DNA of 64,000 nucleotides from Planctomycetota bacterium (GTDB lineage: Bacteria > Planctomycetota > UBA1135 > UBA2386). The notes beneath the pieces are model-generated. The model saw only the letters and a program-made list of their open reading frames with translations, was not told where the DNA came from and did no database searches. The translations under genes and the position numbers were made by a program. Position 1 is the first letter of the stretch. Each line of letters starts with the position of its first letter. Shown here one piece after another: positions 13,976 through 56,658 of the stretch. Location: the NCBI GenBank assembly GCA_046306335.1, contig JBKDXM010000033.1, positions 17,199 to 81,198 on the forward strand, in the 5' to 3' direction.

Positions 13976-14038
13976 CGGGCGGGGCGGAGGGCGGGAAGGT
14001 CGATGGCGACGGCGGCAACGACGGTCGCCCGAACCGCC

Positions 14039-15496: not shown

Positions 15497-15546
15497 GGCG
15501 TGCCTCGTGCCGACGATTCCCGTGATTACGTCGGCTGCGGCACCTA

Positions 15547-15696
15547 CACGGAACGCGCGCCGAGCCGGTGCGCCGATTCGCGGCTGGGGCGAAGCCGACG
15601 ACCGGAGGCGAATCGGTCGATTCGCCGAGGATCGGCGACGAGCCCCCGGACGCGAAGACGCGTGCCAGGTGGCGTGGCCTTCCGGGACGCATGTCC
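15547..15696 (-). repeat. Repeat family B, long form, copy 1
   Basis: It aligns by eye to 46947..47098 with about 13 mismatches over ~145 nt. It contains the internal hairpin GGCGAATC-GGTC-GATTCGCC. The outer termini are degenerate. Confidence 0.8.
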
Positions 15697-15887
15697 CCAG
15701 CTGGCCAACACCGTGTTCGCCGCGGCGGCCTCGCACCGTTCTCCCGCCACCGTGCCCGGCGCGCTGCAACATGGCGGCCGTAAGGGGGAACGCCAGTGCC
15801 GCGAAGGCGAAGTCCGGCGCCGAGCGCGGCCAGCCGGCCCTCAGGAGGATCTTGCGGAGTTCGAACGTTGCACCGTCGGACAGCGGC

Positions 15888-17186
15888 TTACCGACCGCCT
15901 TGGCCTTCGAGACGACGGCACGCCCGCCCCAGCCACCGCCCGAGCCACGCCCACAGCAACAGCACCGGCAGCGCTGCCGCGCACAGCCCGGCGTTGCCGA
16001 GTTGCGCGGCGCGCAGGCCTTCGCTGGCGCAGGCGCCGAGCAGGTCGCCAAAGCGCATGACCGCCGTGTCGACGACCGCCTTGGAGACGTACTTGGCCTC
16101 CGGATCGAGCGGCGTGTAGAGCACGTCGCGCGCCGGCTTGTCGAAGGCGAACTGCAGCGTCCGCCGACCCACCTCGATCGCCGCAGTGACGCCGGCGAAC
16201 GGCCAGATCGCCAGCGCAGTGAGGCCGAGCAGGCTGGCGACCGGCACCGCGCACAGCGCCGCGCCAACGCCCAGGAACAGCAGCACGCGGCTGGTCGCGA
16301 ACAACTGCAGCACGAGGCAGATCGCGTTGTACCACCAGTTCGCGGTCGCCTCGAGCGCGCGGCGCGCCGACTCGTCCGGCAGTTGCGCCTTCGTCAGCGT
16401 GATGCGCTGGAAGTAGAAAGTCGTCGCGACGACCGACGCGAGCAGCACGAACCCGGCGAGGCCGCGCAGGTACGGGTCGCGCAGGACGCGGCCGAGGCCT
16501 TGCGCGAACGAAGGCGGGTCGGCGAGCTGATGCCGGCGCGGCGCGCGGTCCATGCGACGGCACGCGCGCACGGACAACGCCCAGGCGCCGACCGCGCCCT
16601 CGACGCCGACCGCGGCACAACACAGCAGTTGCGCGTAGCTGGCGTCCTTCAGGTGCAGCGACGCCGACGAGCCCAGCATCGCGCCCAGCGTGCCGCCGAC
16701 GGCGATCAGGCCGAACAGCCGCTTGCCCTGCGCCAGCGAGAACCACTCGACCGCGTGCACCCACACCAGCGTGCTGCCGCCGACGACGAACGCCGACACC
16801 CAGGCGTAGAACACGGCATAGGCCCAGCCGCGCGCGCTGGCGAAGTCGAGTTCGCCGAGCTGCGCGCCGCCGCCGCGGTAGACGAACGCCAGCGCGACGA
16901 AGCTCGCGGCGAAGGCGTGCAGCGCATACGGCAGGAAGCGGTGCGACGGCAGGCGGCGGACCAGCGCGACGTAGGGCTGGTTGAGCAGCGTGACGAAGAG
17001 GAACGTCAGCGTGAACAGCGGCAGCAGCCGCGCCGGGCCGAAGGCGGCGCCGACGTTCTCGCGCAGCGGCCGCAGCAGGTAGTAGCTGAACAGCACGCAG
17101 AAGCACGCCACCGCCGTCCACAGCGCCGCGCGGCGCTCGGCCGCGGTCGCGTCGTGGAGGCGCAGGAGGCGCAACAGCGGCTGCAT
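15888..17186 (-). CDS. MFS-type transporter of the TLC (ATP/ADP-translocase-like) family
   Basis: ORF 15888..17354 trimmed to ATG 17186 (MQPLLRLLRL...). It has ~12 TM helices. The N-terminal motif FSYYLLRPLRENVG is characteristic of TLC/Npt-like MFS proteins, by recall. Confidence 0.65.
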   Translation of the reverse strand: MQPLLRLLRLHDATAAERRAALWTAVACFCVLFSYYLLRPLRENVGAAFGPARLLPLFTLTFLFVTLLNQPYVALVRRLPSHRFLPYALHAFAASFVALAFVYRGGGAQLGELDFASARGWAYAVFYAWVSAFVVGGSTLVWVHAVEWFSLAQGKRLFGLIAVGGTLGAMLGSSASLHLKDASYAQLLCCAAVGVEGAVGAWALSVRACRRMDRAPRRHQLADPPSFAQGLGRVLRDPYLRGLAGFVLLASVVATTFYFQRITLTKAQLPDESARRALEATANWWYNAICLVLQLFATSRVLLFLGVGAALCAVPVASLLGLTALAIWPFAGVTAAIEVGRRTLQFAFDKPARDVLYTPLDPEAKYVSKAVVDTAVMRFGDLLGACASEGLRAAQLGNAGLCAAALPVLLLWAWLGRWLGRACRRLEGQGGR

Positions 17187-17382
17187 CGGCGGAGAGGAGT
17201 AGGGGGTGGCGAGGGGTAAGGCCAGCCCACAGCCGCCGCGGAGCCGCGGCGCCCGTGCACCGCAACGCCAACATGCCACCGCGTCACCAACCCAACCCGC
17301 ATCCGCGCGCGCCCGGCGTCCGGCGATTCCCTCCGTCACCATCGTGCCCACCATTCCACCGCCCTATCGTCCCGCCCCACCG

Positions 17383-18384: not shown

Positions 18385-18537
18385 GCGGCGATGGGCGCGC
18401 CGCGACGGGGCGCAATGGACACGCGGCCAGAGACGGGGCGGGCGCAGCGGCGACGCCAACCGCAGCGGGGCAGGCTGCGAAGGCCTGGGAAGGGATAGGA
18501 AGCGCTGTGGAGCAGGCGGGCAACCAAGATGGAGCGG
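18385..18537 (+). repeat. Repeat family A, left arm flanking RAYT
   Basis: Compared by eye with the reverse complement of 19788..19942. Long identical blocks are present (GCGGCCAGAGACG, GGGCGCAGCGGCGACGCCAACCGCAGCGGGG, GAAGGCCTGGGA). Confidence 0.75.
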
Positions 18538-18594
18538 AGGCGATGGAGTGCTGACGCCGGCGACGGATGGGGTTGGAGAGGGGATGGCTGCATG

Positions 18595-18741
18595 GCGGCG
18601 GGGCGGCGGGGCGGCGGGGCGGAGCAGGACCGTCGGGTTGGGATCTCGGCCGACCGCAGGCGGCAGGCGACGGGCGGCGAGGCCGCAGGCGACGGGCGGC
18701 GGACGGCCGGCGGACGGCGGACGGCGGACGGCGGACGGCGA
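18595..18741 (+). repeat. G-rich short tandem repeats (GGCGGGGC x3; GCAGGCGACGGGCGGCG x2; GGCGGAC x4-5)
   Basis: Read directly: ggcggcggggcggcggggcggcggggcgg at 18595-18622 and ggcggacggcggacggcggacggcggacggcg at ~18708-18740. Several GGGG tracts occur on the + strand. Confidence 0.8.
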
Positions 18742-18796
18742 GGCCGGGCAGTGACGCCGTTGCGGCCTCCCATCCGAACGGATCGCGAACATGGCC

Positions 18797-18825
18797 TTGC
18801 TCTTGCGTCGCTCGGAGTGTATATG
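18797..18825 (+). promoter_or_regulatory. Candidate sigma70-like promoter of the RAYT gene
   Basis: TTGCTC (18797-18802), a 17-nt spacer, then TATATG (18820-18825), about 47 nt upstream of ATG 18873. It sits in a local AT-rich patch. An SD-like GGTGAGGTGA precedes the ATG. Confidence 0.3.
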
Positions 18826-18872
18826 TGCGAATTCAAATTGGCGGCAGCGGTTCGGGTTGGTGAGGTGACGCG

Positions 18873-19655
18873 ATGGGAAAGCAGGCAAGGGCGCGCGCGG
18901 CGGATGCAACGACGGGCGCGGGCGCTGGTTCTCGGCCGAAGGGGCGAGCGCGGACGCGGTCACCGGCCGGCCGGCGACCGGTGCAGGGCTCGTTGCCGTT
19001 CCGCCAGCATGGCGGCGCGCGCCCGGGCGCTGGGCGCAAGCCCAACGGCGCTGCGCCGTTGATGGCCCGGACGACGCGGCCCTCGCACGCCGCCTACCAC
19101 CCGGCGCTGGTGACCGTGAAGCTGCGGCAGCACCTGCCGCGGCTGCGCAACCGCAAGGAACGCGCGGCGTTGCTCACCCACTTCGCGCGCGGCAAGGACC
19201 GCTTCGGTTTCCGGCTGCTGCATTTCGCCATCCTCAACGACCATCTGCACTTCGTCGTCGAGGCCAAGGACCGCACCGCGCTCAGCCGCGGACTGCAGGG
19301 GCTGCTCATCCGGCTGGCGCGCGGGCTCAACAAGCTCTGGGGCCGCAAGGGGAAGGTCTTCGCCGACCGCTACCACGACCGCGCGCTCAAGAGCCCGCGC
19401 GAGGTGCGCAACGCGCTGGTCTACGTGCTGGGCAACGGCAGGAAGCACGCCGCACAGGGCCGCATGATCGCGGCGTTCGAGGGGCCGGACATGTTCACTT
19501 CGGCGCCGTGGTTCGACGGCTTCGTCGAAGCAATCGAGGTGCGCGGCATCGACGGCATCCCGCTGCCGGTCGCGCGGGCGCGTACGTGGCTGGCGAACGA
19601 CGGTTGGCGCAGGCTAGGGAAGATCGGACTGGAGGAGCAGCCGAAGGTCGGGTGA
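18873..19655 (+). CDS. REP-associated tyrosine transposase (RAYT; IS200/IS605-like Y1 HUH transposase family)
   Basis: ORF 18873..19655, 260 aa. The HUH motif is NDHLHFVVEA. The Tyr motif is ALVYVLGNGRKH. Conserved GKVFADRYHDRALKSPREVRNAL block is present. The N-terminus is Arg/Gly-rich. Confidence 0.8.
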   Translation: MGKQARARAADATTGAGAGSRPKGRARTRSPAGRRPVQGSLPFRQHGGARPGAGRKPNGAAPLMARTTRPSHAAYHPALVTVKLRQHLPRLRNRKERAALLTHFARGKDRFGFRLLHFAILNDHLHFVVEAKDRTALSRGLQGLLIRLARGLNKLWGRKGKVFADRYHDRALKSPREVRNALVYVLGNGRKHAAQGRMIAAFEGPDMFTSAPWFDGFVEAIEVRGIDGIPLPVARARTWLANDGWRRLGKIGLEEQPKVG

Positions 19656-19787
19656 CGAGCGTGGTGCGCAGCTGAGCCGGCCAAGCCGGCCAGAAACACT
19701 GCGGGCGAACTAAGGAGGCCAACCCCAGCGCCGCCGCTGCGAAGGCCTGGGAAGAGGGCAGCACATCGGGTGCCTGCGTACCCAAAC

Positions 19788-19942
19788 CGCTCCGACTTGG
19801 CCCGCCCCCCGCCGCGTCCCCCGCTCCTCATCCCTCCCAGGCCTTCGGAGCCGCCCCCCGCTGCGGTTGGCGTCGCCGCTGCGCCCACAACGTCTCTGGC
19901 CGCGGGTGCATGCCGCTCCGACTTGGCCCGCCCATCGCCGCC
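19788..19942 (-). repeat. Repeat family A, right arm flanking RAYT (inverted)
   Basis: It is the reverse complement of the left arm. In addition, the right flank holds an internal inverted pair, GCTGCGAAGGCCTGGGAAGAGGG (19735-19757) / CCCTCCCAGGCCTTCGGAGC (19832-19851). Confidence 0.75.
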
Positions 19943-25035: not shown

Positions 25036-25062
25036 CGGCCGCGGTGCGGGCGCGCGATCCTA

Positions 25063-25118
25063 GGAGTCGGCGTGACGCGGGGCCACGCCGCCGGGCGCGC
25101 GCTGCAGCTCACGGCGGT
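25063..25118 (+). repeat. Repeat family B, short form, copy with degenerate right arm
   Basis: GGAGTCGGCGTGACGCGGGGCCACGCCGCCGGGCGCGCG... matches the reverse complement of 48362..48417 at about 36 of the first 42 nt. It lies between the anti-sigma stop and the start of the 1181-aa gene. Confidence 0.6.
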
Positions 25119-33420: not shown

Positions 33421-33468
33421 GTGGCGGCGACTGTAGAACGGCGTCGCCCGCGGAAAAGGGCGCGACCC

Positions 33469-33999
33469 ATGCTTCCCGCCATGAACCATCGCCAACTCGT
33501 CGCCCTCTTGCTGCTGCCGCTCGCCGGCTGCGCCTCCAACTACGACTTCACGCAGGCCCAGCTGCCCGATGGCGGCTACGACGTGCCCAAGCTGATCGCC
33601 GACCTGAAGGCATCGGGCGAACGCCGCCTGCACCACAACGCATGGTTGCCGTTGCTTCGCTACGAGGAAGTCGGGTTCGAACCGGCGACGGACTCGTCCC
33701 CCGCGGGCTACGTGCTGAAGACGAAGACCGGCCTGGGGCCGCTCTTCTTCGCCTCGCGCGACGACGAGCGCGTCGTCGACAGCGCCGGCGCGCCGATCGA
33801 GTCGAGCACCGAGCGGCGGTTCGGCTGGGGCCTGCTGTACAGCACCACGCAGCGCGACGTCACCACGACGCACGGCCTGCGCCAACACACGGCGTGGCGG
33901 GCGCTGCTGCTGTTCGGCCGCACGGACTCGCGCTTCGCGGAAGGCAAGCCGGCGGCGGCAGGGGCGGCCGCGGCGACGACGCCGGCGGGCGCGAACTGA
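33469..33999 (+). CDS. Lipoprotein, unknown function (paralog 1)
   Basis: In frame of ORF 32905..33999 from ATG 33469 (or 33481). The lipobox is LLLPLAGCAS. It is similar along its whole length to the next gene. Confidence 0.6.
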   Translation: MLPAMNHRQLVALLLLPLAGCASNYDFTQAQLPDGGYDVPKLIADLKASGERRLHHNAWLPLLRYEEVGFEPATDSSPAGYVLKTKTGLGPLFFASRDDERVVDSAGAPIESSTERRFGWGLLYSTTQRDVTTTHGLRQHTAWRALLLFGRTDSRFAEGKPAAAGAAAATTPAGAN

Positions 34000-34102
34000 C
34001 GACGACAGCCCGCAGCGCGGTGCCGCGGCGGCAGGTGCGGCGATGCGCCGGCGGCGGTAGAACGCCGCTGCCCGCGCCCGGGCGCGACCACCGCTTCCCG
34101 CC

Positions 34103-34594
34103 ATGGACCATCGCCGACTCGCCGCCCTGCTGTTGCTGCCGCTCGCCGGCTGCGCCGCCAAGCTCCAGCACTACGACTTCGCCCAGGCCCGCCTGCCCGG
34201 CGGCGGCTACGACACCGCGAAGCTGATCGCCGACCTGAAGGCCTCGGGCGCGCACGGTTTGCAGGACGGCTCGTGGTTCCCGTTGATCCACCTGGAGCGC
34301 ACCGAGTTCCGTCCGACCACCGCGAACCTGCCCGACGGCTACGAGCTGACGACGGTGAGCGCGTCGGGGCCGATCTTCTTCACCGGGCGCAACGACCGGC
34401 GCATCGTCGACGGCAAGGGCGATCTGGTCGAGTCGGCCGTCGGCAACTGGTTCGGTTGGAGCCTGCTGCACCACGCGCGCGAGCACGACATCGCCACGAC
34501 GCACGGCCTGCGCCGGCACACGCGCGGCCGCACCCTGCTGCTCTTCGGCGGCGACGCGCTGAGCTACCGCGCCGACGCGCCGGCAGCGAAGTAG
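34103..34594 (+). CDS. Lipoprotein, unknown function (paralog 2)
   Basis: ORF 34103..34594. The lipobox is LLLPLAGCAA. Shared blocks with paralog 1: YDF.QA.LP.GGYD..KLIADLKASG, TTHGLR.HT, LLLFG. Confidence 0.6.
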   Translation: MDHRRLAALLLLPLAGCAAKLQHYDFAQARLPGGGYDTAKLIADLKASGAHGLQDGSWFPLIHLERTEFRPTTANLPDGYELTTVSASGPIFFTGRNDRRIVDGKGDLVESAVGNWFGWSLLHHAREHDIATTHGLRRHTRGRTLLLFGGDALSYRADAPAAK

Positions 34595-46203: not shown

Positions 46204-46307
46204 CCGCGCCGATCCGTCGTTCGCTCGCGCATCGCAACGGCGACGCGGACCGGCTACGAAGCCGGCGGACGACACTGCGCATGCCCACCTACCCAACCGA
46301 TCGGGCC

Positions 46308-46910
46308 ATGACGCCGACGCGCGTGGCGCGCGGCGCGGCAGCCGCCTTCGCCTGCCTGATTGCGATTGCGTGCGCCGGCCCCGCGCCAGCCACGTCCCGC
46401 GCCCGGATCGGACTCGATCGCACGCCCGGCGCGGAGTTCGTCAGCGCCCGCGTGCACCATGGCGTGCCCATCCTGCAGAAGTCGTTCTTCTGGGACGGCA
46501 ACGGCGAAGTCGACAACAGCGGCATCGGCCTGCACTGGGGCCACTTCGTCGACGAACGACTCGCCTTGGGCCTCGGCTCGAACGTGGCGAACTGGTGGAC
46601 GGGCGGTCGCGACGTGCAGAGCGTCGAGCTCGAGGGCCTGATCCGGGTCTATCCCGAGCCCGACTGGCCGCTGTTCGTCAGCGGCACGGGCGGCTACCAG
46701 TTGGCCAACGACCAAATCCCGCCGGGCGGCACGGTGTGGAACTTCACCTTCAGCTTCGGCGCCGGCGTCGAGATCCCGGTGGCCACGGGCACGAGCGCGT
46801 TGGTCGCGCTGGACTACCACCACATCTCGAACGCGCTCGGCCGCGAAAGCGCGCGCAATCCGAGCCAGAACGAAGCCCGCTTCTGGATCGGCGTCGGCTG
46901 GACGTTCTGA
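46308..46910 (+). CDS. Lipid A 3-O-deacylase (PagL)-like outer-membrane beta-barrel
   Basis: In frame of ORF 45546..46910 from ATG 46308 (or 46281). It has an N-terminal signal and alternating beta-strand pattern. The YHHISNA (His-x-Ser) motif and the terminal aromatic residue (...IGVGWTF) are present. Confidence 0.7.
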   Translation: MTPTRVARGAAAAFACLIAIACAGPAPATSRARIGLDRTPGAEFVSARVHHGVPILQKSFFWDGNGEVDNSGIGLHWGHFVDERLALGLGSNVANWWTGGRDVQSVELEGLIRVYPEPDWPLFVSGTGGYQLANDQIPPGGTVWNFTFSFGAGVEIPVATGTSALVALDYHHISNALGRESARNPSQNEARFWIGVGWTF

Positions 46911-46936
46911 CCGGGCGGAAGGAACGCCGCAGCCGG

Positions 46937-47098
46937 CAGACTGCGTCACGGAACGCGCGCCGATCCGGTGCGCGGATTCGCGTTCGGGGCGAAGCCGACG
47001 ACCGGAGGCGAATCGGTCGATTCGCCGAGGATCGGCGGCGAGCTCCCGGACGTGAAGACGCGTGCCGGGCGGCGCGGCCTTTCGTGACGCAGACTCCT
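46937..47098 (-). repeat. Repeat family B, long form, copy 2 (most complete)
   Basis: The terminal inverted repeats are GCAGACTGCGTCACGGAACGCGCGCC ... GGCGCGGCCTTTCGTGACGCAGACTCC. The internal ~100 nt are shared with 15547..15696. The element abuts the TAG stop of the gene at 47097. Confidence 0.85.
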
Positions 47099-48299
47099 AT
47101 GGGCCGACCGTCAGGTGCAGGCGCGCAGTCGCCGCCAGGCCGGGCACGAGCGGGCACGGCGAGCTCGGCGCCTGCAGCAGCGCCCACTGCATGCCGATCG
47201 TCGTGCCGACGACCGACGGCTGGTTCGGCACGCCCCATGGCCAGAAGGCGAAACCGCCGGCTTGCAGCACGAAGGTCCACGACACCGCGTCGAGGAAGGC
47301 GCAGGGACCGCAAACGAGCTCGTTGCCGGGGAGGCCGATGCCGGCGAACGCCAGCGCGCCGGCGGGCGCGCCCTGCAGCCGCAGCGCGAAGTTGGCGCTG
47401 CCGACGTTGAAGCTGCCGGAGCTGCTGATCGCGCCGGCGTTGCCGCAGCTGCTGCCGACGACGACCGATTGCGCGACGGCGAAGCCGAGGTGGTTGGCGA
47501 CCGCGCGATGGCCGCCGTCGCTCGGCTGGTTCTGGACCAGCGCGCCGCCGGGCGGCGAGTGCAGGAACGACGACGAGCCACCGCCGTCGAGGTTGATGGC
47601 GCGCCACGCGCCCATGGCGAGGAACACGTTGGCGAGCTCGGGCAGCGTCATGCCGACCGACCAACCCGGCTGGCGGCCGTCGACGACCGCGACGTAGAGC
47701 GTCGTGCCCTGCTGGTTGACGCCGACCGCCGTGCGCGGGTTGCGCACCAGCGGCTCGACGCGCGCCGTCGCGCCGGTGTTGACGCCGTCGGTGACCAGCA
47801 GCGTGCCCGGCACCGTGTCGGTGCTGCTCGGACCGACGCCCGCGATCGCCCACTGCGCGGCGGCGGCCTGCGCCGTCGTGATGTTGCCGATCGTCGCCAG
47901 GCGGTTCGGCGCGAACACCAGCGCCGGGTCGGGCGCGGCGCCGAACTGGCGCACCGGCGAGACCAGGACGCCGTTGCTCTTGCTCAGTCCGACGATGTCG
48001 GCGGTGGTCGACGACAACGCGCCGAAGAAGTTGGCGTTGATCGACAACCGGTTGCCGAGCTGGTTGTGCCAGTTCAGCGTCGTACGCAGCGAGGCCTCGT
48101 ACGACTGCAGCGGCGACAGCGGCGCCGTCACGCGGATCTCCAGCCGCGGATCGGTCAGGTCGATCACCGCCGTGAAGCCGCGCGCCGTGCCGCCGCTCGT
48201 CGCCCAGACCTGCGGCGCGACCGCGATCTGCGCCGGCGGCGCGGCGGCGACGAAGGCGCAGGCGAGCAAGGCGAGGACGCGCAGCGGCGCAGTCGGCAT
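47097..48299 (-). CDS. Secreted phosphodiester glycosidase (NAGPA/DUF2233) family protein with C-terminal beta-rich domain
   Basis: ORF 47097..48299. It has a signal peptide (MPTAPLRVLALLACAFVAAAPPAQ). The NAGPA core carries RTAVGVN..GT.LY.VVVDGRQ and AINLDGGGSS. A ~115-aa C-terminal domain follows. Confidence 0.8.
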   Translation of the reverse strand: MPTAPLRVLALLACAFVAAAPPAQIAVAPQVWATSGGTARGFTAVIDLTDPRLEIRVTAPLSPLQSYEASLRTTLNWHNQLGNRLSINANFFGALSSTTADIVGLSKSNGVLVSPVRQFGAAPDPALVFAPNRLATIGNITTAQAAAAQWAIAGVGPSSTDTVPGTLLVTDGVNTGATARVEPLVRNPRTAVGVNQQGTTLYVAVVDGRQPGWSVGMTLPELANVFLAMGAWRAINLDGGGSSSFLHSPPGGALVQNQPSDGGHRAVANHLGFAVAQSVVVGSSCGNAGAISSSGSFNVGSANFALRLQGAPAGALAFAGIGLPGNELVCGPCAFLDAVSWTFVLQAGGFAFWPWGVPNQPSVVGTTIGMQWALLQAPSSPCPLVPGLAATARLHLTVGP

Positions 48300-48361
48300 G
48301 GGCGCAGTCTACCGCGGCGGGGCCGGACCGGGCGGCTGGGCGCGGTCGCGCTGCCGCGCTC

Positions 48362-48417
48362 GGAGTATGCGTCACGGAACGCGCGCCGGGCGGCGCGGCC
48401 TTTCGTGACGCCGACTC
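48362..48417 (-). repeat. Repeat family B, short form (terminal inverted repeats only)
   Basis: GGAGTATGCGTCACGGAACGCGCGCC-GGGC-GGCGCGGCCTTTCGTGACGCCGACTCC is a 56-nt near-perfect hairpin. It directly abuts the TAG stop (48418-48420) of the GNAT gene. Confidence 0.85.
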
Positions 48418-48921
48418 CTACGGCGCCGTCGCGGCGGCAGCACAGCGCGCCAGCGCCTCGCCATCGAGCCGGCAGACGCGCCAGTCGGCCAGCAGGCGCG
48501 CGCCCTGGCGTTCGTAGAAAACGATCGCCGGCGCGTTCCAGTCGAGCACTTGCCAGTCCAGCCGCGGGCAACCGCGCGCCACGGCGAGCCGCGCGACGGC
48601 GCGCAGCAGCGCGAGGCCGATGCCGTGGCCGCGCAGGTCCGGCGCGACGAAGAGGTCCTCCAGGTGCAGACAGGCTTCGGTGCGGAACGTCGAGTACGTC
48701 GCGAAGTGCAGCGCGAAGCCGGCCGGTCGGCCCGCCCACTCCGCCAGCAGCGCGCCGCAGGCCGGCTGCGGCCCGAACAGGTGCGCGCGCAGGCGCTGCT
48801 CGCTGACGTCGAGTTCGTGCTCGAGGCGCTCGTAGCGCGCGAGGTCGACGATGAAGCGCGCGACCAGCGATTCGTCGCCGGGCACGGCGGCGCGGACGAG
48901 CAGACGGGGATCGGCGGCCAT
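48418..48921 (-). CDS. GNAT-family N-acetyltransferase
   Basis: ORF 48418..48921. The acetyl-CoA motif LEDLFVAPDLRGHGIGLALL and a C-terminal FYERQGA are present. Confidence 0.85.
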   Translation of the reverse strand: MAADPRLLVRAAVPGDESLVARFIVDLARYERLEHELDVSEQRLRAHLFGPQPACGALLAEWAGRPAGFALHFATYSTFRTEACLHLEDLFVAPDLRGHGIGLALLRAVARLAVARGCPRLDWQVLDWNAPAIVFYERQGARLLADWRVCRLDGEALARCAAAATAP

Positions 48922-48944
48922 GGGCGGGCAGGCTACCCGCAGCG

Positions 48945-49001
48945 GGGGGCGCGCCGGCCGAGGGGGCGCCGGCCGCGGGGGCGCCGGCCGCGGGGGCGCC
49001 G
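48945..49001 (+). repeat. 15-nt tandem repeat (GGGGGCGCCGGCCGC) x ~3.5
   Basis: Read directly in the 80-nt gap between the infA stop (49002) and the GNAT start (48921). Confidence 0.85.
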
Positions 49002-49217
49002 TCAGGCGCGGTAGGTGATGCGACCGCGGGTCAGGTCGTACGGCGACAGCTCCACCGTGACGCGATCGCCGGGGATGATGCGGATGTAGTTCTTGCGCAT
49101 CTTGCCGGAGATGTGCGCGAGCACGATGTGTCCGCCATCCACCTGGATGCGGAACTTGGTGTTGGCGAGGGTCTCAACGACCGTGCCTTCCAGGACAATC
49201 GCTTCTTCTTTGGGCAC
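49002..49217 (-). CDS. infA: Translation initiation factor IF-1
   Basis: Tail of ORF 49002..49406 from GTG 49217. (V)[70 protein letters not shown] is a canonical IF-1 S1 fold. Confidence 0.9.
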
Positions 49218-49395
49218 AACGACTCCAGTGGCGACCAGGATCGGCCGGCGCGACCACCGCCACGGGTGATCGGACCGGGCTGTGCGGCTCTGGGCCGCAC
49301 AGCGGGGCGAGGAGTCTACGGCCACGCCGGGCGGGCGATCAAGCCGCCCCCCCATCGACGCTGCACCGTGGCGGTCGCCGTGCGTCCGCGCCAGG

Positions 49396-50034
49396 ATGCC
49401 GCGCATGGCCGGCCAGCCCCGCCGCCGCGGCGACGCGCCCGAGCGCTTCGACCGGGCCTATTACGACCGTTTCTACCGCGACCCGGCGACGCGCGTCTCC
49501 GACGCCGCGGCGGTGGGCAAGCTCGCCGCGCTGACCGCGGCGTGGGCCGCGTGCCTGGACTTCGAGGTGCGCACGATCCTCGACCTCGGCTGCGGGCTCG
49601 GCCATTGGCGCACGGCGGCGCGGCGGCGCTGGCCGCGCGCCGCCTACCACGGCGTCGAGCACTCGCGCCATCTGTGCGCCGAACTCGGCTGGACGCACGG
49701 CTCGATCGTCGACTTCGACCCGGCGCGCGCCTTCGGGGCGGAGCGCTTCGACCTCGTCGTCTGCCAGGGCGTGCTGCAGTACCTCGACGATCGGCAGGCG
49801 GCGGCGGCGCTGCGCAACCTCGCGGACTGGGCCGGCGGCCTGCTGTTCCTCGAAGCGCTGACCGCGCGCGACTGGCGCGAACGCTGCGACCGCGACCGCA
49901 CCGACGGCGACGTCCACCTGCGCACCGGCGCGTGGCACCGCCGCCGGCTCGCCCGCGACTTCACGACGCTGGGCGGCGGCGTGTTCGCGGCGCGGCGCGC
50001 CGGCTTCGTCTTCTTCGAACTGGAGACCGGCTAG
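49396..50034 (+). CDS. Class I SAM-dependent methyltransferase
   Basis: In frame of ORF 49282..50034 from ATG 49396. Motif I is [11 protein letters not shown] and the post-I/II region is [13 protein letters not shown]. Confidence 0.75.
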
Positions 50035-50037
50035 ACG

Positions 50038-51903
50038 ATGGACTTCTTCGGCCATCAGGAGGCGGCCCGCCGCGCGACCAAGCGCCTCGTCGTGCTGTAC
50101 GTGCTGGCGCTGGCCGCGATCGTGGCGAGCATCCACCTCGCGGCGTCCTTCGCGTTCGCGCTCGGGGACCGCGGCGGGCCGCGGCTGGGCACGCTGTTGC
50201 TGCTCGTCACGGCCGCGACGCTCGCCGTCGTCGGCGTGGGCGCGCTCGTCCGCATGCTCGAACTGCGCCGCGGCGGCCCGGCCGTCGCCGAGCTGCTCGG
50301 CGGCCGGGCGGTGCCGCTGCGGCCGACGGATCCGAAGGAGCGCCTGCTGCGCAACCTGGTCGAGGAGATGGCGATCGCCTCCGGCACGCCGATCCCCGCG
50401 CTCTACGTGCTCGACGACGAGACGGGCCTCAACGCCTTCGCCGCCGGCTGGACGCCGGACGACGCCGCCGTCGCCGTAACGCGCGGCTGCCTCGACGAAC
50501 TCGACCGCGACGAGCTGCAAGGCGTCATCGCGCACGAGTTCAGCCACGTCTTCCACGGCGACATGCGGCTCAACATCCGCCTGATGGGCGCGCTGGCCGG
50601 CATCGTCTGCCTCGTCACGATCGGGCGGGTGCTCGCGCGGGTCGGCGGCCGCAGCCGCGGCAACCGCAAGAACAACGCCGCCGCGTTCGCGTTGTTCGGC
50701 GTGCTGCTGGTGGCGATCGGTTGGATCGGCGTCCTGTTCGCCCGCCTCATCCAGGCAGCGGTGTCGCGCCAGCGCGAGTACCTCGCCGACGCCAGCGCCG
50801 TGCAGTACACGCGCAATCCGCTCGGCATCGGCATGGCGCTGGCGCGCATCGGCGATCGCTCCGCCCGCATCCAAAACGTGCGCGCCGAGGAAGCGAGTCA
50901 CATGCTGTTCGCCGATGGGATGGGCCGCATGTTCGGCAGCCTGCTCGCCTCCCACCCCCCGATCGCCGAGCGCATCGCCCGCGTGCTGCCCGGCTTCGCC
51001 GCCGCGTCGCGGCCGCGCCGCTCCCTGCAGGCCGACGTGGCCGCGCTGGCGCCGGCCCCAGCCCGCGCCGACGCGCTGCGGCGCAGCGCGCCCGACGCGC
51101 TGGTCGCCGCCTTCGGCGAGCCGCAGGCCGCCGACGTCGCGGCCGCACGCGACCTGCTCGCCGGCCTGCCGCTGACGCTCGCCCAGGCCGCCCATGCGCC
51201 GGAGTCGGCGAAGGCGCTGGTCTGCGCGCTGCTGCTGGCCGACGACCCGGCGCTGCGCGCCGCCCAAACGGCGCTGCTCCCGGCCGACGCCGCGCTGCGC
51301 CACGATGCGCAGGCGCTGCGCCTCCCGACGCGCGCGGTCGGCGCGACGGCGCGGCTGCCGCTGCTGACGCTGGCGCTGCCGGCGCTGCGCGGACTGCCGG
51401 TCGGGGAACGCCGGCCTCTGCGGGCCGCGCTGCAGGCGCTGGCCGGCGCGGACGGCGCGCTGGCGCCGTTCGAATGGGCGCTGCTGCGCCTCGCCGACCG
51501 CGCGCTCGCGCCGGACGCCGACGGCCGGGTGCGGCGGCCGACGGCCCGCAAGGCGCCGCTGTACGCCCGCGCCGACGCCGTCGCGACGGTGCTGTCGCTG
51601 GTCGCCCGCACCGCCAACTTCGACGACGACCAGCGCGCCGCCGCAGCCTTCCGGCGCGGCGGCGAGGCGCTCGACGGCTTGCCGGGCCTGCGGCTGCGGC
51701 CGGCCGCCGAGTGCACGCTCGACGCGCTCGGCGTCGCCGTGGATGCGCTGGCCGAGGTCACGCCGCTCGCGCAGCGCAACCGGCTCGCCGCCTGCGCCGC
51801 CGCCGCCGCGAGCGACGGCGCGGTGCAACCGGCGGAGGCGGAGCTGTTGCGCGCGCTCGCGGCGATCTGGGACTGCCCGCTGCCGCTCGCCGTCGCCAAC
51901 TGA
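50038..51903 (+). CDS. M48-family (HtpX-like) zinc metallopeptidase with ~290-aa C-terminal extension
   Basis: ORF 50038..51903. It has two N-terminal TM helices, HEFSHV (HExxH) and REYLADASAV. The long Ala/Leu-rich C-terminal region has unknown function. Confidence 0.85.
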   Translation: MDFFGHQEAARRATKRLVVLYVLALAAIVASIHLAASFAFALGDRGGPRLGTLLLLVTAATLAVVGVGALVRMLELRRGGPAVAELLGGRAVPLRPTDPKERLLRNLVEEMAIASGTPIPALYVLDDETGLNAFAAGWTPDDAAVAVTRGCLDELDRDELQGVIAHEFSHVFHGDMRLNIRLMGALAGIVCLVTIGRVLARVGGRSRGNRKNNAAAFALFGVLLVAIGWIGVLFARLIQAAVSRQREYLADASAVQYTRNPLGIGMALARIGDRSARIQNVRAEEASHMLFADGMGRMFGSLLASHPPIAERIARVLPGFAAASRPRRSLQADVAALAPAPARADALRRSAPDALVAAFGEPQAADVAAARDLLAGLPLTLAQAAHAPESAKALVCALLLADDPALRAAQTALLPADAALRHDAQALRLPTRAVGATARLPLLTLALPALRGLPVGERRPLRAALQALAGADGALAPFEWALLRLADRALAPDADGRVRRPTARKAPLYARADAVATVLSLVARTANFDDDQRAAAAFRRGGEALDGLPGLRLRPAAECTLDALGVAVDALAEVTPLAQRNRLAACAAAAASDGAVQPAEAELLRALAAIWDCPLPLAVAN

Positions 51904-51990
51904 CGCCGCGCCGCGGGCCAGCGCGCCCGCAGCGGCGCTCGCGCCAGAGCGACGTTGCGCGCGCCCCGCTGCCCGCTCGATGATGCGCCG

Positions 51991-52770
51991 ATGCGGCGAT
52001 GCCGACTCCTGCCTTGCCTGTGGCTCCTCGCCGTCGCGGCGTCCGCGCAGCAACCGGACGGCGCGCCGCCAAGCCGACCTGCGGCGCCACCGGCGACGCC
52101 ACGAGCGTTCCCGGCGGACGAGGCGACGGCGCGCTTCGCCAACCGCAACGCGTCGTTCCACATCCAACTGCCGGCGCAGTGGCGGCAGATCGCGCCCGGC
52201 GAGGCGCGCACCGTCGGGGAACGGCGCGAGGCGCCGCCGAAGTTAGGCTTCGCGCAGCCCAACCACTTCTACGCCGTCGGGCCGGTCGACCAGTGGCTCG
52301 CCGGCGACTTCCGCGGCGCGTGGCTCTACGTCGTCGAACAGGACGCCGAGTGGCACATCGGCGACCACTGGCAGGACGATCTGCGCGCCATGTGGCGCGA
52401 GGAAGGCGCGGCGAGCGGCAATCGCCACGAACTGACCAACCTGCGCCGCGCCAAGGTCGGGACCCAGGGCGTCGAGGCGCTGCTGGCGGAGCGCACCACG
52501 ACGCCGCCGGATGGTCGTCCGGCGGTCCGCAGCCTCGACGTGCACGCGCCGTGCGGCGGCCGTCAGGTGTCGCTGTCGTTCTGTTGCCCGCCCGAGCGAT
52601 TCGGCGCGGAGGAAGCCTCGTTCGTCGCCGCGCTCGCGACGCTGACCTTCGCCCGGCTGCCGCGCGAGCAGCAGAGCCTCGGCGACCGGCTGTGGTCGCC
52701 GCTAATGACTGGCGGCGCGGTCGCCCTCGTGCTGCTGCTGCTCTACAAGCACACGCGCGGCCGGCGTTGA
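51991..52770 (+). CDS. Secreted/tail-anchored hypothetical protein
   Basis: ORF 51955..52770 trimmed to ATG 51991 (signal MRRCRLLPCLWLLAVAASAQQ). The C-terminus has a hydrophobic helix plus a basic tail (GGAVALVLLLLYKHTRGRR). Confidence 0.5.
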   Translation: MRRCRLLPCLWLLAVAASAQQPDGAPPSRPAAPPATPRAFPADEATARFANRNASFHIQLPAQWRQIAPGEARTVGERREAPPKLGFAQPNHFYAVGPVDQWLAGDFRGAWLYVVEQDAEWHIGDHWQDDLRAMWREEGAASGNRHELTNLRRAKVGTQGVEALLAERTTTPPDGRPAVRSLDVHAPCGGRQVSLSFCCPPERFGAEEASFVAALATLTFARLPREQQSLGDRLWSPLMTGGAVALVLLLLYKHTRGRR

Positions 52771-52878
52771 GCCGCGCAGGGCCTGGGCCTAGACTGTGGG
52801 CCTTGCGGTTCGGGGCCCGTCGCCGGCGATCTCCGCCGCGCTGCGTGGGCACGCGCCGCCCCCGCACTTTCTGCCGCC

Positions 52879-54450
52879 TTGAAGAAGACCACTTCGCCGA
52901 AGTCCGCGCGCAACCTCGACAAGTTCCTGTTCGAGGCCGGGCAGCAATGCCAGAAGCGCCTCTGGCTCGACTACCATGAGCCGGGCGAGGAGCCGGTCGG
53001 CCCGATGCGGCAGGCGATGTCCGAGATCGGCGCGCAGTTGCGCACGCTGGCGCGGTCGGCCTTCCCCAAGGGCGTCGTCGTCGAGGGCAAGGACGTGACG
53101 GCCGCGGCCGCCGACACCAAGGCGAAGATCGCCGCCGGCACGCCCGTGCTATTCGACGCCGCCTTCGTCGCCGAGGGCGTGGAGGTGCGCTGCGACGTGC
53201 TGGTCGTGCACCGCGACGGCCTCTGCGACCTGTTCGAGATCAAGTCGGGTGTCAAGGTGAAGCACCGCTACGTCAACGACCTGGCGCTGCAGGCCTACGT
53301 GCTCGCGGCGTCGGGCCTGCAGATGCGGGCCGCGTACCTGCTGCACGTCAACCCGAAGTACGTGCACAAGGAAGGCGCCGACTATCCGGCGATGCAGCTG
53401 CTGCGCAGCAGCGACGTGACCGCCAAGGTGCAGAAGCAGTTGGACCCGACGCGGCGCCGCCTGCAGCACTGCCGCGCGGCGCTCGCCGACGAAGCCGTGC
53501 TGCAGCTGCCGATGGGCACGTTCTGCACGGCGCCGTTCCCGTGCCCGCACCTCGCCCGCTGCGGCAAGGAAGCGCCGGCGCTGCCGCTCCGCGAGCTGCC
53601 CGAGCTCACCCGGGCCCAGGAACTGGCGCTGCACAAGGAAGGCATCGAGACGATGACCGACCTCGATCCGGCGCGCGAGGGCCTGACCTTCCGCCAGCGC
53701 CGGACGCTGGCCTGCATCAAGCAGGACGCGCCGCTGGTCGAGCCGTTCGTGCGCGAGGAACTGCGCCAGTGCAAGAAGCCGCTGCACTTCCTCGCGATGG
53801 TCTCGGTCACCGAGTCGCTGCCGCGCTTCGACGGCCAGCGGCCGTGGCGGCACGTGCCGTACGCGTGGGCGTGCACGACCGTGCACGAAGGCGGGCGCAT
53901 CGAACAGGACTCGTTCGCGCACACCGAGAAGTCCGACCCCCGCCCCGGCTTCGTCGAGAGCCTCGCCCGGCGGCTGGAGGTCGGCGGTTCGATCGTCGTC
54001 TGGGACGACGAAGCACTGGAGGAACTGCACACGCTGCTCGACGACCTGCCGGCGCACAAGGCGCACGTGCGCGCGATCATCTCCCTGCCGCACCTCGACC
54101 TGATGCAGCTGCTCGACGCCGGCGTGTTCCACCCGCAACTGCGCACGCACGCCGACCTGCGCGCCAGCGCCGCCGCACTGCTGAGCGACGACAGCGGCAA
54201 GGAACTCGCGCATTGGGGCGAGGACGCGTGCTTCGGCGAACTGCAGAAGGCGCAGGCGCCGCGCGTGCGCAGCACGACGCGCAGCAAGATCGCGACCGAC
54301 CTCGTGGCGACGCTGCAGTGGTCGGTCGAACGCATCCGGGCGCTGTTCGCCAAGTACGCGGAGGAGGAGGCGCCGGCGCCGAAGCCCAAGACCACGCCCG
54401 CGCGCAAGGCGGCGAAGCCGCTGCCCAAGCCGCTGCCGCCCGAAGCCTGA
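52879..54450 (+). CDS. DUF2779-like protein: N-terminal Cas4/RecB-type PD-(D/E)xK nuclease module with Cys cluster, plus C-terminal uncharacterised (RNase H-like?) module
   Basis: ORF 52879..54450. It has an early Cys (QQCQKRLW), the D...EIK motif (CDLFEIKSG) and a late Cys cluster (CTAPFPCPHLARC), arranged as in Cas4-family Fe-S nucleases. The C-terminal tail is Lys/Pro/Ala-rich. Confidence 0.65.
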   Translation: MKKTTSPKSARNLDKFLFEAGQQCQKRLWLDYHEPGEEPVGPMRQAMSEIGAQLRTLARSAFPKGVVVEGKDVTAAAADTKAKIAAGTPVLFDAAFVAEGVEVRCDVLVVHRDGLCDLFEIKSGVKVKHRYVNDLALQAYVLAASGLQMRAAYLLHVNPKYVHKEGADYPAMQLLRSSDVTAKVQKQLDPTRRRLQHCRAALADEAVLQLPMGTFCTAPFPCPHLARCGKEAPALPLRELPELTRAQELALHKEGIETMTDLDPAREGLTFRQRRTLACIKQDAPLVEPFVREELRQCKKPLHFLAMVSVTESLPRFDGQRPWRHVPYAWACTTVHEGGRIEQDSFAHTEKSDPRPGFVESLARRLEVGGSIVVWDDEALEELHTLLDDLPAHKAHVRAIISLPHLDLMQLLDAGVFHPQLRTHADLRASAAALLSDDSGKELAHWGEDACFGELQKAQAPRVRSTTRSKIATDLVATLQWSVERIRALFAKYAEEEAPAPKPKTTPARKAAKPLPKPLPPEA

Positions 54451-54456
54451 GCCCTG

Positions 54457-54815
54457 GGAGTCTGCGTCACGAAGGGCCGCGCCGCCTGCCGCGCACCGCA
54501 GCTGCGGGTCGTTCTGCAGCCGCACCTCCGTCTGCCCTGCCCTGCTCTCCTCTGCCCTTCTTTGCGCTGTGCGCTCGGTGTTCTCCGTGGTTGTTCTGCT
54601 TCTGCAGCAGCAGCAAGGAACCACAGAGGACACAGAGGACACAGAGCCCAGACACCAAGAGCCCAGCAGCACCCGGCAGTCGCGGGGCAGCGGGTTGCAG
54701 TCCGCGAGCCGGGGCACGCCCGTGCGCCCGGACGCTCGCTGCCGAGCGTCCGCGCATCCACGGGTCCGCCTGCGGTCGGAGGCTTCGCCTCGGTCGCGGA
54801 TCGCCCGAGGTGGCC
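54457..54815 (+). repeat. Repeat family B copy split by a ~220-nt insertion containing a long imperfect hairpin and a 9-nt tandem repeat
   Basis: The left arm is GGAGTCTGCGTCACGAAGGGCCGCGCCGCC (54457-54486). A degenerate remainder at ~54709-54815 aligns by eye to the reverse complement of 46937..47068. Inside are a hairpin (54583-54628, CTCCGTGGTT...AACCACAGAG) and CACAGAGGA x2.8 (54622-54646). Confidence 0.6.
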
Positions 54816-54821
54816 GCGCGC

Positions 54822-55853
54822 TCAGGCCGCCGCGTAGGCCGACAGCAGCGCGCCGAGCTCGCGGTCGATGCCGAATCGGCGCTGGAAGTCCTCGCGCACG
54901 CGCACGCCCAACGCGCCCGCCGCCGAGCGATTGCGGCACAACGCGAGGACCTGCTGCGCCATCTGCTCTTCGTCGGCGAACAACAGGCCGGTCTCCCTGT
55001 GGCGGAGCAGTTCGCGGTTGCCGGGCACGTCGGCCGCGACGATCGGCCGGCCGAGGAACCCCGCTTCCAGCAGGGTCGGGGCCGCGCCTTCGTGGAACGA
55101 GGTGTTGAGCACCACGTCGGCGTCGGTGTACGCCGCGCCCATGCGCTCGCGCGCGAGCGTCGGCAACAAGCGGACCCCGGCGTGTTCCGCGATGCGCCGC
55201 CGCAGGTCGGCCGCGTACTCGGGGTGCTGGTCCGGGCCGGCGAGGATGACCTCGACATCGGCCCCCGCACCGCGCAGGACGCTGGCGAGGCCGAGCGCCC
55301 GATGCTGCCCCTTGATCGGCCGCAGACCGCCCGGCAGGAACACGAGGAACCGCTGGCGCGGGATGCCGAGCGAACGACGCAGGTCGGTGCCATCGGTCGC
55401 GAGGCGCGCAGCCGACCGCGGCACGACGTCGACCTTGCCGATCGCTTCCGGCACGCGCTGCTCGACCAGCGCAGCCGCGTCGGCCGACGGAGCGAGCACG
55501 CGATGGGCGCGGCGCAGCACCTCGCAGACCAGCTGCCCCCGCTTGTCGTCGAGCATGTCGCTGTAGAGGTCCTCGCCCGTCAGCGAGACGACCCATGGCG
55601 TGCGCAAGCCGAGCAGCCTGACGCCACAGCGCAGCGCATCGTGGGCATGGACGACGTCGGGACGGAAGCGGGTCAACGTGCCTTCGAGCGACTGCGTCAG
55701 GCCGCCTTCGCCGCCGCCGCCGAACGTCTCGCACAGATGGCCGCGCGCCTGCAGGCCGTCGCGCCAGCGCGCGACCGTGGACAGCCCGCCCATGTGGCAG
55801 ACGGCCGGCGTCGGCGTCATCAAGAGGACCTTCACGGCGGGCTCTTTCGGCAT
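54822..55853 (-). CDS. Glycosyltransferase family 1
   Basis: ORF 54822..56126 trimmed to ATG 55853 (MPKEPAVKVLLMTPT...). The GT-B C-terminal motif is SFHEGAAPTLLEAGFLGRPIVAADVPGNRELL. Confidence 0.8.
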   Translation of the reverse strand: MPKEPAVKVLLMTPTPAVCHMGGLSTVARWRDGLQARGHLCETFGGGGEGGLTQSLEGTLTRFRPDVVHAHDALRCGVRLLGLRTPWVVSLTGEDLYSDMLDDKRGQLVCEVLRRAHRVLAPSADAAALVEQRVPEAIGKVDVVPRSAARLATDGTDLRRSLGIPRQRFLVFLPGGLRPIKGQHRALGLASVLRGAGADVEVILAGPDQHPEYAADLRRRIAEHAGVRLLPTLARERMGAAYTDADVVLNTSFHEGAAPTLLEAGFLGRPIVAADVPGNRELLRHRETGLLFADEEQMAQQVLALCRNRSAAGALGVRVREDFQRRFGIDRELGALLSAYAAA

Positions 55854-55869
55854 CGCCGGCCGGGGCGCT

Positions 55870-56658
55870 TCAGCGCGGACCGGCCGGACACGCCGCGCGC
55901 ACGGCGCGCACGCGCGCCGGATCGACCGGCTGGTCGACGCGGCCGTCGTGCTTGCAGGCCGTGCCCACGATCGCCCCATCGCATGCGGGCCACAGCGCCG
56001 GCGCGGACGCGAGCGACAGTCCCGAGCCGAGCCAGATCGGGAACGCGCCGACGGCGGCGCGCACGGCGACGACTGCTGGCAGGTCGACCGGCTCGCCCGT
56101 CCGCCGGCCGGACAGCACGATGCCATCGGCGCCGCTGCGTTCGGCGACGTCCTTGGCGCCGGCGGCGAGGTCGAGCGGGGCCAGCGGTGCGGCGTGCTTC
56201 ACGAAGTGGTCGGCCAGCAGCAGCCCATGCCAGCCGAGCTGGCGACGGTACGCGGCGAGCCGCGCCGCCTCGCCTTCGATCACGCCCTGGTCGGTGACGT
56301 AAGCCCCGGCGAGCACGTTGACGCGCACCCACCGCGCGCCGGTCGCGGCGGCGACGCCTAGCGCGGCCATGCCATCGTTGCGCAGGCAGTTGATCCCGAT
56401 CGGCAGGCCGGTCTCGGCGGCGATCCGGGCCGCGGCGATCGCCAGCCCGGCGACCGCGTCGGGCGGCGCGGGATCGTCGCGCGTGCCCTTGTGGAACGGC
56501 GCGTCGCCGAAGTTCTCCACGATCACGCCGTCGAAGCCGCCGGCGGCGTAGGCCCGCGCGTCGGCGAGCGCACGATCGAGCACGCTGGCCATCGTGCGAT
56601 GGCCGCGCGACGACGGTAGCGGCAGCAGGTGGACGACGCCGAGCAGCGGGCGGCTCAT
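55870..56658 (-). CDS. BtpA/SgcQ-family TIM-barrel protein
   Basis: ORF 55870..56658. GVVHLLPLP, GFDGVIVENFGDAPF and IGINCLRND motifs are typical of BtpA/SgcQ, by recall. Confidence 0.8.
   Translation of the reverse strand: MSRPLLGVVHLLPLPSSRGHRTMASVLDRALADARAYAAGGFDGVIVENFGDAPFHKGTRDDPAPPDAVAGLAIAAARIAAETGLPIGINCLRNDGMAALGVAAATGARWVRVNVLAGAYVTDQGVIEGEAARLAAYRRQLGWHGLLLADHFVKHAAPLAPLDLAAGAKDVAERSGADGIVLSGRRTGEPVDLPAVVAVRAAVGAFPIWLGSGLSLASAPALWPACDGAIVGTACKHDGRVDQPVDPARVRAVRAACPAGPR

Follow-up and report, generated by a model that had tools for sequence, protein, structure and literature searches.

Bacterial MITEs typically carry terminal inverted repeats and a terminal TA, and the whole element can fold into a hairpin (PMC2229807). 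One of them, RUP of Streptococcus pneumoniae, has been attributed to IS630-Spn1 (PMC2229807). IS630/ISY100 inserts into TA and duplicates it, needs only its 24-bp terminal repeats, and occasionally duplicates a dinucleotide other than TA (PMC2170065). According to its title, the report of Tenzen and Ohtsubo (1991; cited in PMC2170065) describes an IS630-associated composite transposon that prefers the TA in 5'-CTAG-3'.

Several other families of short repeats are built in a comparable way. The Correia/NEMIS elements of Neisseria have a terminal TA, terminal inverted repeats of ~26 bp and long and short forms that arose by internal deletion; when transcribed, the whole element forms one hairpin, and the copies lie beside genes and are co-transcribed with them (PMC2229807). 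The ERIC/IRU elements of enterobacteria are imperfect palindromes of similar size (ERIC, ~127 nt), with size variants produced by internal insertion or deletion; they are intergenic and transcribed, and an effect on mRNA stability has been described for ERIC (PMC2229807). The GTAG REPs and REPINs (Di Nocera et al. 2013, PMC3733652) have a TAG-containing end beside a hairpin, their termini often supply the TAG stop of a neighbouring open reading frame, and they are found mainly between convergent or co-directional genes, in Planctomycetes as well. Their monomers are stem-loops of 20-40 nt with stems of 6-13 bp and a tag at one end only.

In this work, a 64,000-nt stretch of Planctomycetota DNA (the window) was analysed, and a palindromic repeat family, designated family B, was compared with these systems. 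The family resembled RUP and Nezha (cyanobacteria) in its small size, its lack of coding sequence and its terminal inverted repeats of ~25-30 bp (PMC2229807, PMC2170065). Unlike both, it is GC-rich in a host of 73% GC, modular (57-403 nt) and hosted by Planctomycetota, it has copies in phages too, and it lacked a parent IS with matching ends among the loci examined. Insertion at TA with TA on both sides, and a recent mobility seen from filled and empty sites, were shared with the IS630/Tc1-mariner MITEs. The features listed above for the Correia/NEMIS and ERIC/IRU elements were also recognised, with the exception of the mRNA effect, which is that of ERIC. However, the composition suggests no sequence relationship with Correia/NEMIS, and no IHF site or promoter-like ends were seen in family B, while ERIC/IRU differ from it in both sequence and host. 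The GTAG REPs shared the TAG-containing ends and the gene context, but family B has a stem of ~25 bp and TA at both ends, its halves are not stem-loops, and its head-to-tail arrays share one TA.

Results

Copies of family B in the window

It was confirmed that family B is a real palindromic repeat family with five members in the window, which has a GC content of 73% (Table 1). All copies listed in the first-pass annotation stood, but their exact ends did not, and the L and S elements were redefined as 162 nt (46936-47097) and 57 nt (48362-48418), respectively. The similarity that had been noticed over ~145 nt between two long copies 31 kb apart was reproduced by a computed alignment, in which 15547-15691 and 46947-47091 were 91% identical. 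The hairpin reported inside the long form was also present at its place (Table 1). A sequence identical to the L copy at 46936-47097 was found in the sister MAGs L109, L110, L115 and L117. The second L copy lies between two genes, the TLC-like transporter gene, whose stop is ~190 nt upstream, and the CarboxypepD_reg gene, whose start is ~50 nt downstream.

The XL region, previously read as a split copy at 54457-54815, actually represented a third form, which was larger and had a conserved interior of its own. It had no right terminus and ended where the convergent GT4 gene ends (stop 54822-54824); it is therefore a larger form whose right end was lost at the stop of this gene. The copy at 25063..25118, which had been described as short with a degenerate right arm, kept its left arm (41 nt recognisable), but no right arm could be recognised, and its match to the family HMM was weak (E = 1.3). 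This remnant was found shortly before a start codon, in the 73-nt spacer that separates two genes of the minus strand; hence, the TAG next to it was no real stop codon.

The 27-nt left arm GGAGTCTGCGTCACGAAAGGCCGCGCC occurred three times with at most one mismatch, when no occurrence was expected in shuffled sequences. A repeat search also paired the arms 47058-47102, 48379-48423, 54451-54494 and 25061-25101. The family HMM detected no further copies, either in the window or in the 16 kb of contig around it (8 kb at each end).

Two side observations were made on the window. The third-position GC signal of the CarboxypepD_reg gene (region 14000-15500) was ~0.8, much weaker than the 0.93-0.97 of its neighbours, and this gene may be a more recent acquisition. 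At 33458-34552, two adjacent lipoprotein-like gene segments ~630 nt apart were 72-88% identical and had a common signal-peptide region; this pair arose by tandem gene duplication and has no relation to family B.

Table 1. Positions of family B copies, of their contacts with stop codons and of the genes considered, in window coordinates.
Feature	Position	Strand	Description
L-form element, 162 nt	46936..47097	-	left terminus GGAGTCTGCGTCACG intact; right terminus slightly decayed (GCAGTCTGCC)
L-form element, ends decayed	15536..15697	-	core 15547-15691 similar to 46947-47091
S-form element, 57 nt	48362..48418	-	one hairpin made of the two joined terminal inverted repeats; in the GNAT-NAGPA spacer
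XL-form element	54457..54821	+	left terminus, then ~230-nt CT/AG-rich palindromic M, then diverged core C
Remnant, TA + 41-nt left arm	25061..25103	+	85% identical to the S copy; no recognisable right arm
Central hairpin GGCGAATC-GGTC-GATTCGCC	47007..47026	.	tip of the L-form core module
NAGPA TAG stop	47097..47099	-	flanking TA (47098-47099) + first G of the element (47097)
GNAT TAG stop	48418..48420	-	flanking TA (48419-48420) + first G of the element (48418)
NAGPA gene	47097-48299	-	Pfam
GNAT gene	48418-48921	-	Pfam
DUF2779 gene	52879-54450	+	Pfam
GT4 glycosyltransferase gene	54822-56126	-	Pfam
CarboxypepD_reg gene	14039-15496	-	Pfam
TLC-like transporter gene	15888-17354	-	Pfam
Y1/IS200-like gene	18873-19655		Pfam Y1_Tnp E = 2e-4, narrowly missing the curated cut-off; the only Y1-type gene of the window

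Modular structure of the element

Additional copies were drawn from sister MAGs, metagenome contigs and two phage contigs. The general build of family B was TIR-(M, ~230 nt)-(C, ~105 nt)-TIR, in which either or both modules may be absent. The terminal inverted repeats (TIR) were imperfect, ~27-34 bp long, began with GGAGTCTGCGTCACG and were common to all forms. Forms of 57 (S), 162 (L), 268, 330 and 403 nt were recorded, the last two being XL. The S form had no interior, the L form contained the 105-nt palindromic module C, the 268-nt copy, found in L133, contained the CT/AG-rich module M alone, and the XL forms (330-403 nt) contained both. Over 364 nt, the XL copy of the window shared 81% identity with a 403-nt copy that was complete, with both termini (L114:14447-14849), and the right part of the window copy aligned as a diverged copy of the L interior. 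Judging from indel-rich alignments, no open reading frame appears to be conserved between the forms. With lengths of 57-403 nt, within the limit of ~500 bp for MITEs, and inverted termini at both ends, the elements were of the non-autonomous MITE type.

The short form had been described as the two termini joined, and this was correct, since S consisted of the first 34 nt and the last 23 nt of L. In other words, S equalled L minus the segment between two copies of the 10-nt direct repeat CGGCRCGCGT. The S copies kept differing versions of this repeat, CGGCGCGCGT in most of them and CGGCACGCGT in L131. These two different crossover points fit a deletion between short direct repeats, by which the S form would have been derived from L.

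Flanking dinucleotides and target choice

TA was rare in the window, where it made up 0.68% of dinucleotides (433 observed vs 1167 expected from the base composition). The intact ends of the elements were flanked by TA, usually as C-TA-G, in 16 of 25 cases and had no TA in the other nine; as TA is its own reverse complement, a duplication at such sites is indistinguishable from a tag carried by the element. Insertion at TA, often CTAG, is the mark of IS630/Tc1-mariner elements. Both ends were flanked by TA in the S copy of L129, the L copy of L112 and the L copy of the phage contig L153, the last in the context GCTAGC-TA-GCTCC. Further, a single TA joined tandem copies in L113, L130, L132 and L133, and the L+XL junction of L113 read ...GACGCAGACTCC-TA-GGAATCTGCGTCACG... 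The base beyond the right TA was G in all five informative cases and the base before the left TA was C in five of seven, therefore the preferred context was C-TA-G.

In the one clean comparison of a filled and an empty site, the right flank of the filled site was GA and not TA, so one substitution must be assumed. The complete XL copy of L114 had TC on each side as a direct repeat (TC/TC), in agreement with a duplication of 2 bp at an off-target site; this single element is the only informative non-TA case, with a probability by chance of 1 in 16.

IS5-type transposases use YTAR targets. It was considered whether the elements were moved by another TA-target DDE transposase, e.g. of the IS5-group or PIF/Harbinger-like type (YTAR/TNA), and not by IS630. 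The CTAG context of several insertions would fit a 4-bp CTAG duplication made by such an enzyme. However, the outermost G...C of the element stayed constant whatever the flanking base, even when this base was A or G; therefore, the repeated unit was TA and not CTAG, and a 4-bp duplication was ruled out. The left flanks ATAG/GTAG also did not agree with the right flanks CTAG/CGAG (L112 and the 48362 copy). We consider a transposase of this kind very unlikely.

Contacts with stop codons

The contacts with stop codons that had been pointed out in the first-pass annotation were all found: the TAG of both NAGPA and GNAT overlapped the first base of the element, and the TGA of DUF2779 lay 6 nt before the element. 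In relatives without the element, both NAGPA and GNAT already end in TAG. A third fusion was found on L132, where the TAG of the gene was made of the flanking TA and the G of the element, with the other element end abutting. The TAG fusions thus involved three different genes, and the orientation of the element at one of them was opposite to that at the other two. The insertion-site preference that had been offered as one possible reading was supported by the TA flanks of the ends, by the single TA common to tandem copies, by the empty sites of the relatives, where the ancestral stop was already TAG, and by the opposite orientation of the third fusion.

The stop-codon contacts are explained by insertion into the TA of TAG, because the first G of the element then rebuilds TAG. 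Both element ends begin with G, therefore an insertion into TAG or TAA rebuilds TAG in either orientation. After such an insertion the protein would be unchanged, and the element would look fused to the stop codon. As TA is rare in a 73% GC genome and insertions inside genes would be removed by selection, the TA of TAG and TAA stops would be a tolerated target. The window contains ~50 genes, with 43 TGA, 5-6 TAG and 2 TAA stops, and 60 TA dinucleotides outside open frames. If the elements land on tolerated TA, ~1/8 of insertions are expected at a stop codon even without a CTAG bias. With this expectation, the two of five window copies located at stops are unremarkable (binomial estimate, p about 0.1).

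Filled, empty and variant sites

By its gene order and spacing, the window belongs to contig JBKDLY010000067.1 of GCA_046344235.1 or to a MAG nearly identical with it. The NAGPA protein was identical on at least 23 MAG contigs, and among the MAGs with this identical protein the NAGPA site was occupied by L, XL or L+XL. Five MAGs carried the same 162-nt L element as the window. In L111 its place was taken by a 330-nt element that shared the termini but not the interior, L113 contained both L and the 330-nt type, and the contig of L118 ended inside the element. In two contigs (L112:11365-21203 and L114:11271-18653), the DNA beyond the element at the NAGPA site ran into entirely different genes, which were a sulfotransferase-like gene and an 808-aa CarboxypepD_reg gene in L112, and OsmC, AAA ATPase and UvrD-helicase genes with two further family B copies in L114. 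Such switches reflect either genuine rearrangement at the repeats or chimeric joins made in assembly.

The S copy was missing from the GNAT-NAGPA spacer in relatives with 95% (L154) and 90% (L119-L121) protein identity. In L119-L121, whose NAGPA was 90% identical, this spacer was 64 nt long vs 118 nt in the window, and the empty site CCGTA-GCGGCGG corresponded to CCGTA-(57-nt S)-GAGCGCGG of the window, the hyphen marking the insertion point. The same CCGTA-GCGG was read in L119 and L154. The XL copy was also absent from L119-L121, where the DUF2779/GT4 spacer was 63 nt vs 372 nt in the window. After the NAGPA stop of the 95% relative L154, only a left-arm remnant was found. No family members were detected by the family HMM in 16-21 kb of syntenic DNA of the 90, 82 and 78% identity relatives. 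Based on the empty sites and on this result, it was concluded that the family spread recently in this lineage. Besides the five copies of the window, dispersed copies were located at a minimum of 10 further sites on contigs of MAGs, metagenomes and phages. The MITE-like relationship suggested earlier was in agreement with the TA-flanked ends, the single TA common to tandem copies and the empty sites in relatives.

Some additional features of these loci were recorded. A small outer-membrane beta-barrel/PagL-like gene (window 46254-46910; 200-209 aa in MAGs) adjoins the L element and was absent in the 95% and 90% relatives, where NAGPA directly abuts a 547-aa gene; the PagL-like gene and the L element form one indel. 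Many of the Logan contigs L139-L143 started 120-173 nt upstream of CarboxypepD_reg, inside the L copy at 15547. The family causes assembly breaks, and these suggest a high genomic copy number.

Phage copies and searches of sequence collections

L copies ~89% identical to those of the host were found in two phage contigs of 66% GC (L153:2924-3086 and L152:1-136), which were IMGVR_UViG_3300049043_000052 and IMGVR_UViG_3300049043_000191, respectively. The element in L153 had TA/TA flanks in the CTAG context, and this contig also encoded a terminase large subunit and fragments of a RecE-like exonuclease. The phage copies tie the phages to this host lineage and show that the element enters phage DNA.

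A scan of viral contigs for the empty site in phage gave no match, and a search of viral contigs with a 17-mer of the terminus added only one match, by chance (L155, 54% GC). No match was obtained in the plasmid collection by blastn in distant mode. When the pattern GCGTCACGAARGGCCGCGCC was searched in genome contigs, it matched at least 108 unrelated genomes, none with a family member, and the matches were a lysS motif. The arm 20-mer GCGTCACGAAAGGCCGCGCC (47071-47090 and 48392-48411) is identical to one of the usual codings of the lysyl-tRNA synthetase motif GAARPFVTHHN, which is present in many phyla; the identity is a coincidence, but it swamps pattern scans. A stricter pattern in metagenome contigs yielded six short contigs with informative flanks and no autonomous element.

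RNA structure

The hairpin-forming capacity attributed to the family was supported by folding. The L form folded as one long hairpin (-104 kcal/mol, z = -6.5) and the S form as a 57-nt hairpin with a stem of ~25 bp (-42 kcal/mol, z = -4.0). A role of these hairpins as terminators or mRNA stabilisers had been suggested together with the insertion-site preference, but this part of the proposal found no support in the sequence, as the T-tract and the Rfam match were lacking, the covariation was weak and two window copies were located off 3' ends. A terminator scan of 46500-55200 was empty at the elements, no T-tract was present at any copy, and the hairpins were followed by TAGG..., GAGCG... and similar sequences. 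The search of the whole window against Rfam 15 gave no match at gathering thresholds, and its only match with E < 1 was a chance miRNA (E = 0.84). Among seven L copies, two compensated pairs were found, when most other varying pairs were broken. The covariation score was equalled by 22 of 500 shuffles and by the structure slid by one column, with few independent copies available; the result leans against selection on the structure.

The alternative in which hairpins are kept at 3' ends as terminators or as protection from exonucleases, with both spread and position due to host selection, agrees with the high stability of the hairpins, with the two compensated pairs and with the position of four of the five window copies, each of which follows a gene with its left end first. 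An influence on mRNA stability is also known for ERIC and Correia elements (PMC2229807). On the other hand, besides the missing T-tract and Rfam match and the broken pairs, the TAG fusions occurred in both orientations, copies were also found just upstream of starts, in truncated form, in tandem arrays and inside the genomes of phages, and in close relatives these genes are present but lack the element. Host selection for such an RNA was therefore judged highly improbable. The hairpin is explained by the inverted-repeat build of the element, because there was no T tract or Rfam match and the covariation consisted mostly of broken pairs. The very stable hairpin of a transcribed element may change mRNA processing, as a by-product and not as the reason for the family.

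Candidate enzymes

No transposase gene bounded by family B termini was found in the window or in any locus examined. The Y1/IS200-like gene (Table 1) is located in a region (18385-19941) with 86-nt inverted arms that are 86% complementary and with G-rich tandem repeats of GGCGGAC units at ~18590-18740; this arrangement resembles the "TIRtron" of PMC3733652. The earlier statement that family B is unlike the arms around this RAYT-like gene was upheld by a sequence comparison, in which no similarity was seen.

The presence of this gene means that the genome has an enzyme of the type that mobilises REPs and REPINs. It was considered whether family B is of the REP/REPIN type, moved by a HUH tyrosine transposase (RAYT/TIRYT) without target duplication, so that (N)TAG would be a GTAG-like tag that supplies the stop codon. 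Indeed, NTAG is present beside the hairpin at many ends, and for GTAG REPs the supply of TAG stops to flanking open reading frames, head-to-head dimers with outward tags and an occurrence in Planctomycetes have been reported (PMC3733652). However, the arms flanking the Y1 gene are unrelated to family B, and the halves of the S form folded with -6.1 and -7.7 kcal/mol vs shuffled means of -7.7 and -7.6 kcal/mol. As the halves folded no better than shuffles, S is not a dimer of stem-loop monomers, and the reading as a head-to-head REP dimer was ruled out. Further, the ~25 bp stem of family B exceeds the 6-13 bp of REPs, TAG is found at each end and is self-paired, not confined to one end as an unpaired tag, head-to-tail arrays with one shared TA are common in family B and rare for REPs, and one family B copy has direct TC/TC flanks. 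We regard the REP/REPIN origin as unlikely.

Discussion

Based on all comparisons, family B most probably consists of non-autonomous MITEs of uncultured Planctomycetota (Phycisphaerales-like) that insert at TA in the mode of IS630/Tc1-mariner elements, and whose contacts with stop codons result from target choice. One point against this reading is the high GC content of the elements, which most bacterial MITEs described so far do not share.

We propose that a transposase supplied in trans would bind the terminal repeats, excise the element and insert it at TA, preferably at C-TA-G, with duplication of TA. A new copy inserted into the TA that flanks a resident copy would give the tandem arrays sharing one TA. 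The predicted mover is most likely an IS630-type transposase.

A stronger version was also proposed, in which the family is active now and moves between the host chromosome and phages, and its G termini and CTAG/TAG choice have been shaped to rebuild stops; in a variant, the mover is a Y1/TIRYT-type enzyme. This version appears rather improbable. If true, it would represent a "safe harbour" strategy for a transposon where TA is rare, and with a Y1/TIRYT-type mover, family B would be a TA-flanked, modular kind of REPIN that is so far undescribed.

TA-duplicating hairpin MITEs and TAG-supplying repeats have both been described already, and the non-autonomous, TA-inserting MITE family proposed here involves no new mechanism. 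For the host lineage, the family explains the differing breaks and joins of MAG contigs at element sites, its filled, empty and variant sites are a strain-level marker, and it connects two phage contigs with this lineage. More generally, target choice together with purifying selection can make a selfish element mimic a 3'-end function, which calls for caution in the annotation of hairpins after stop codons in GC-rich genomes.
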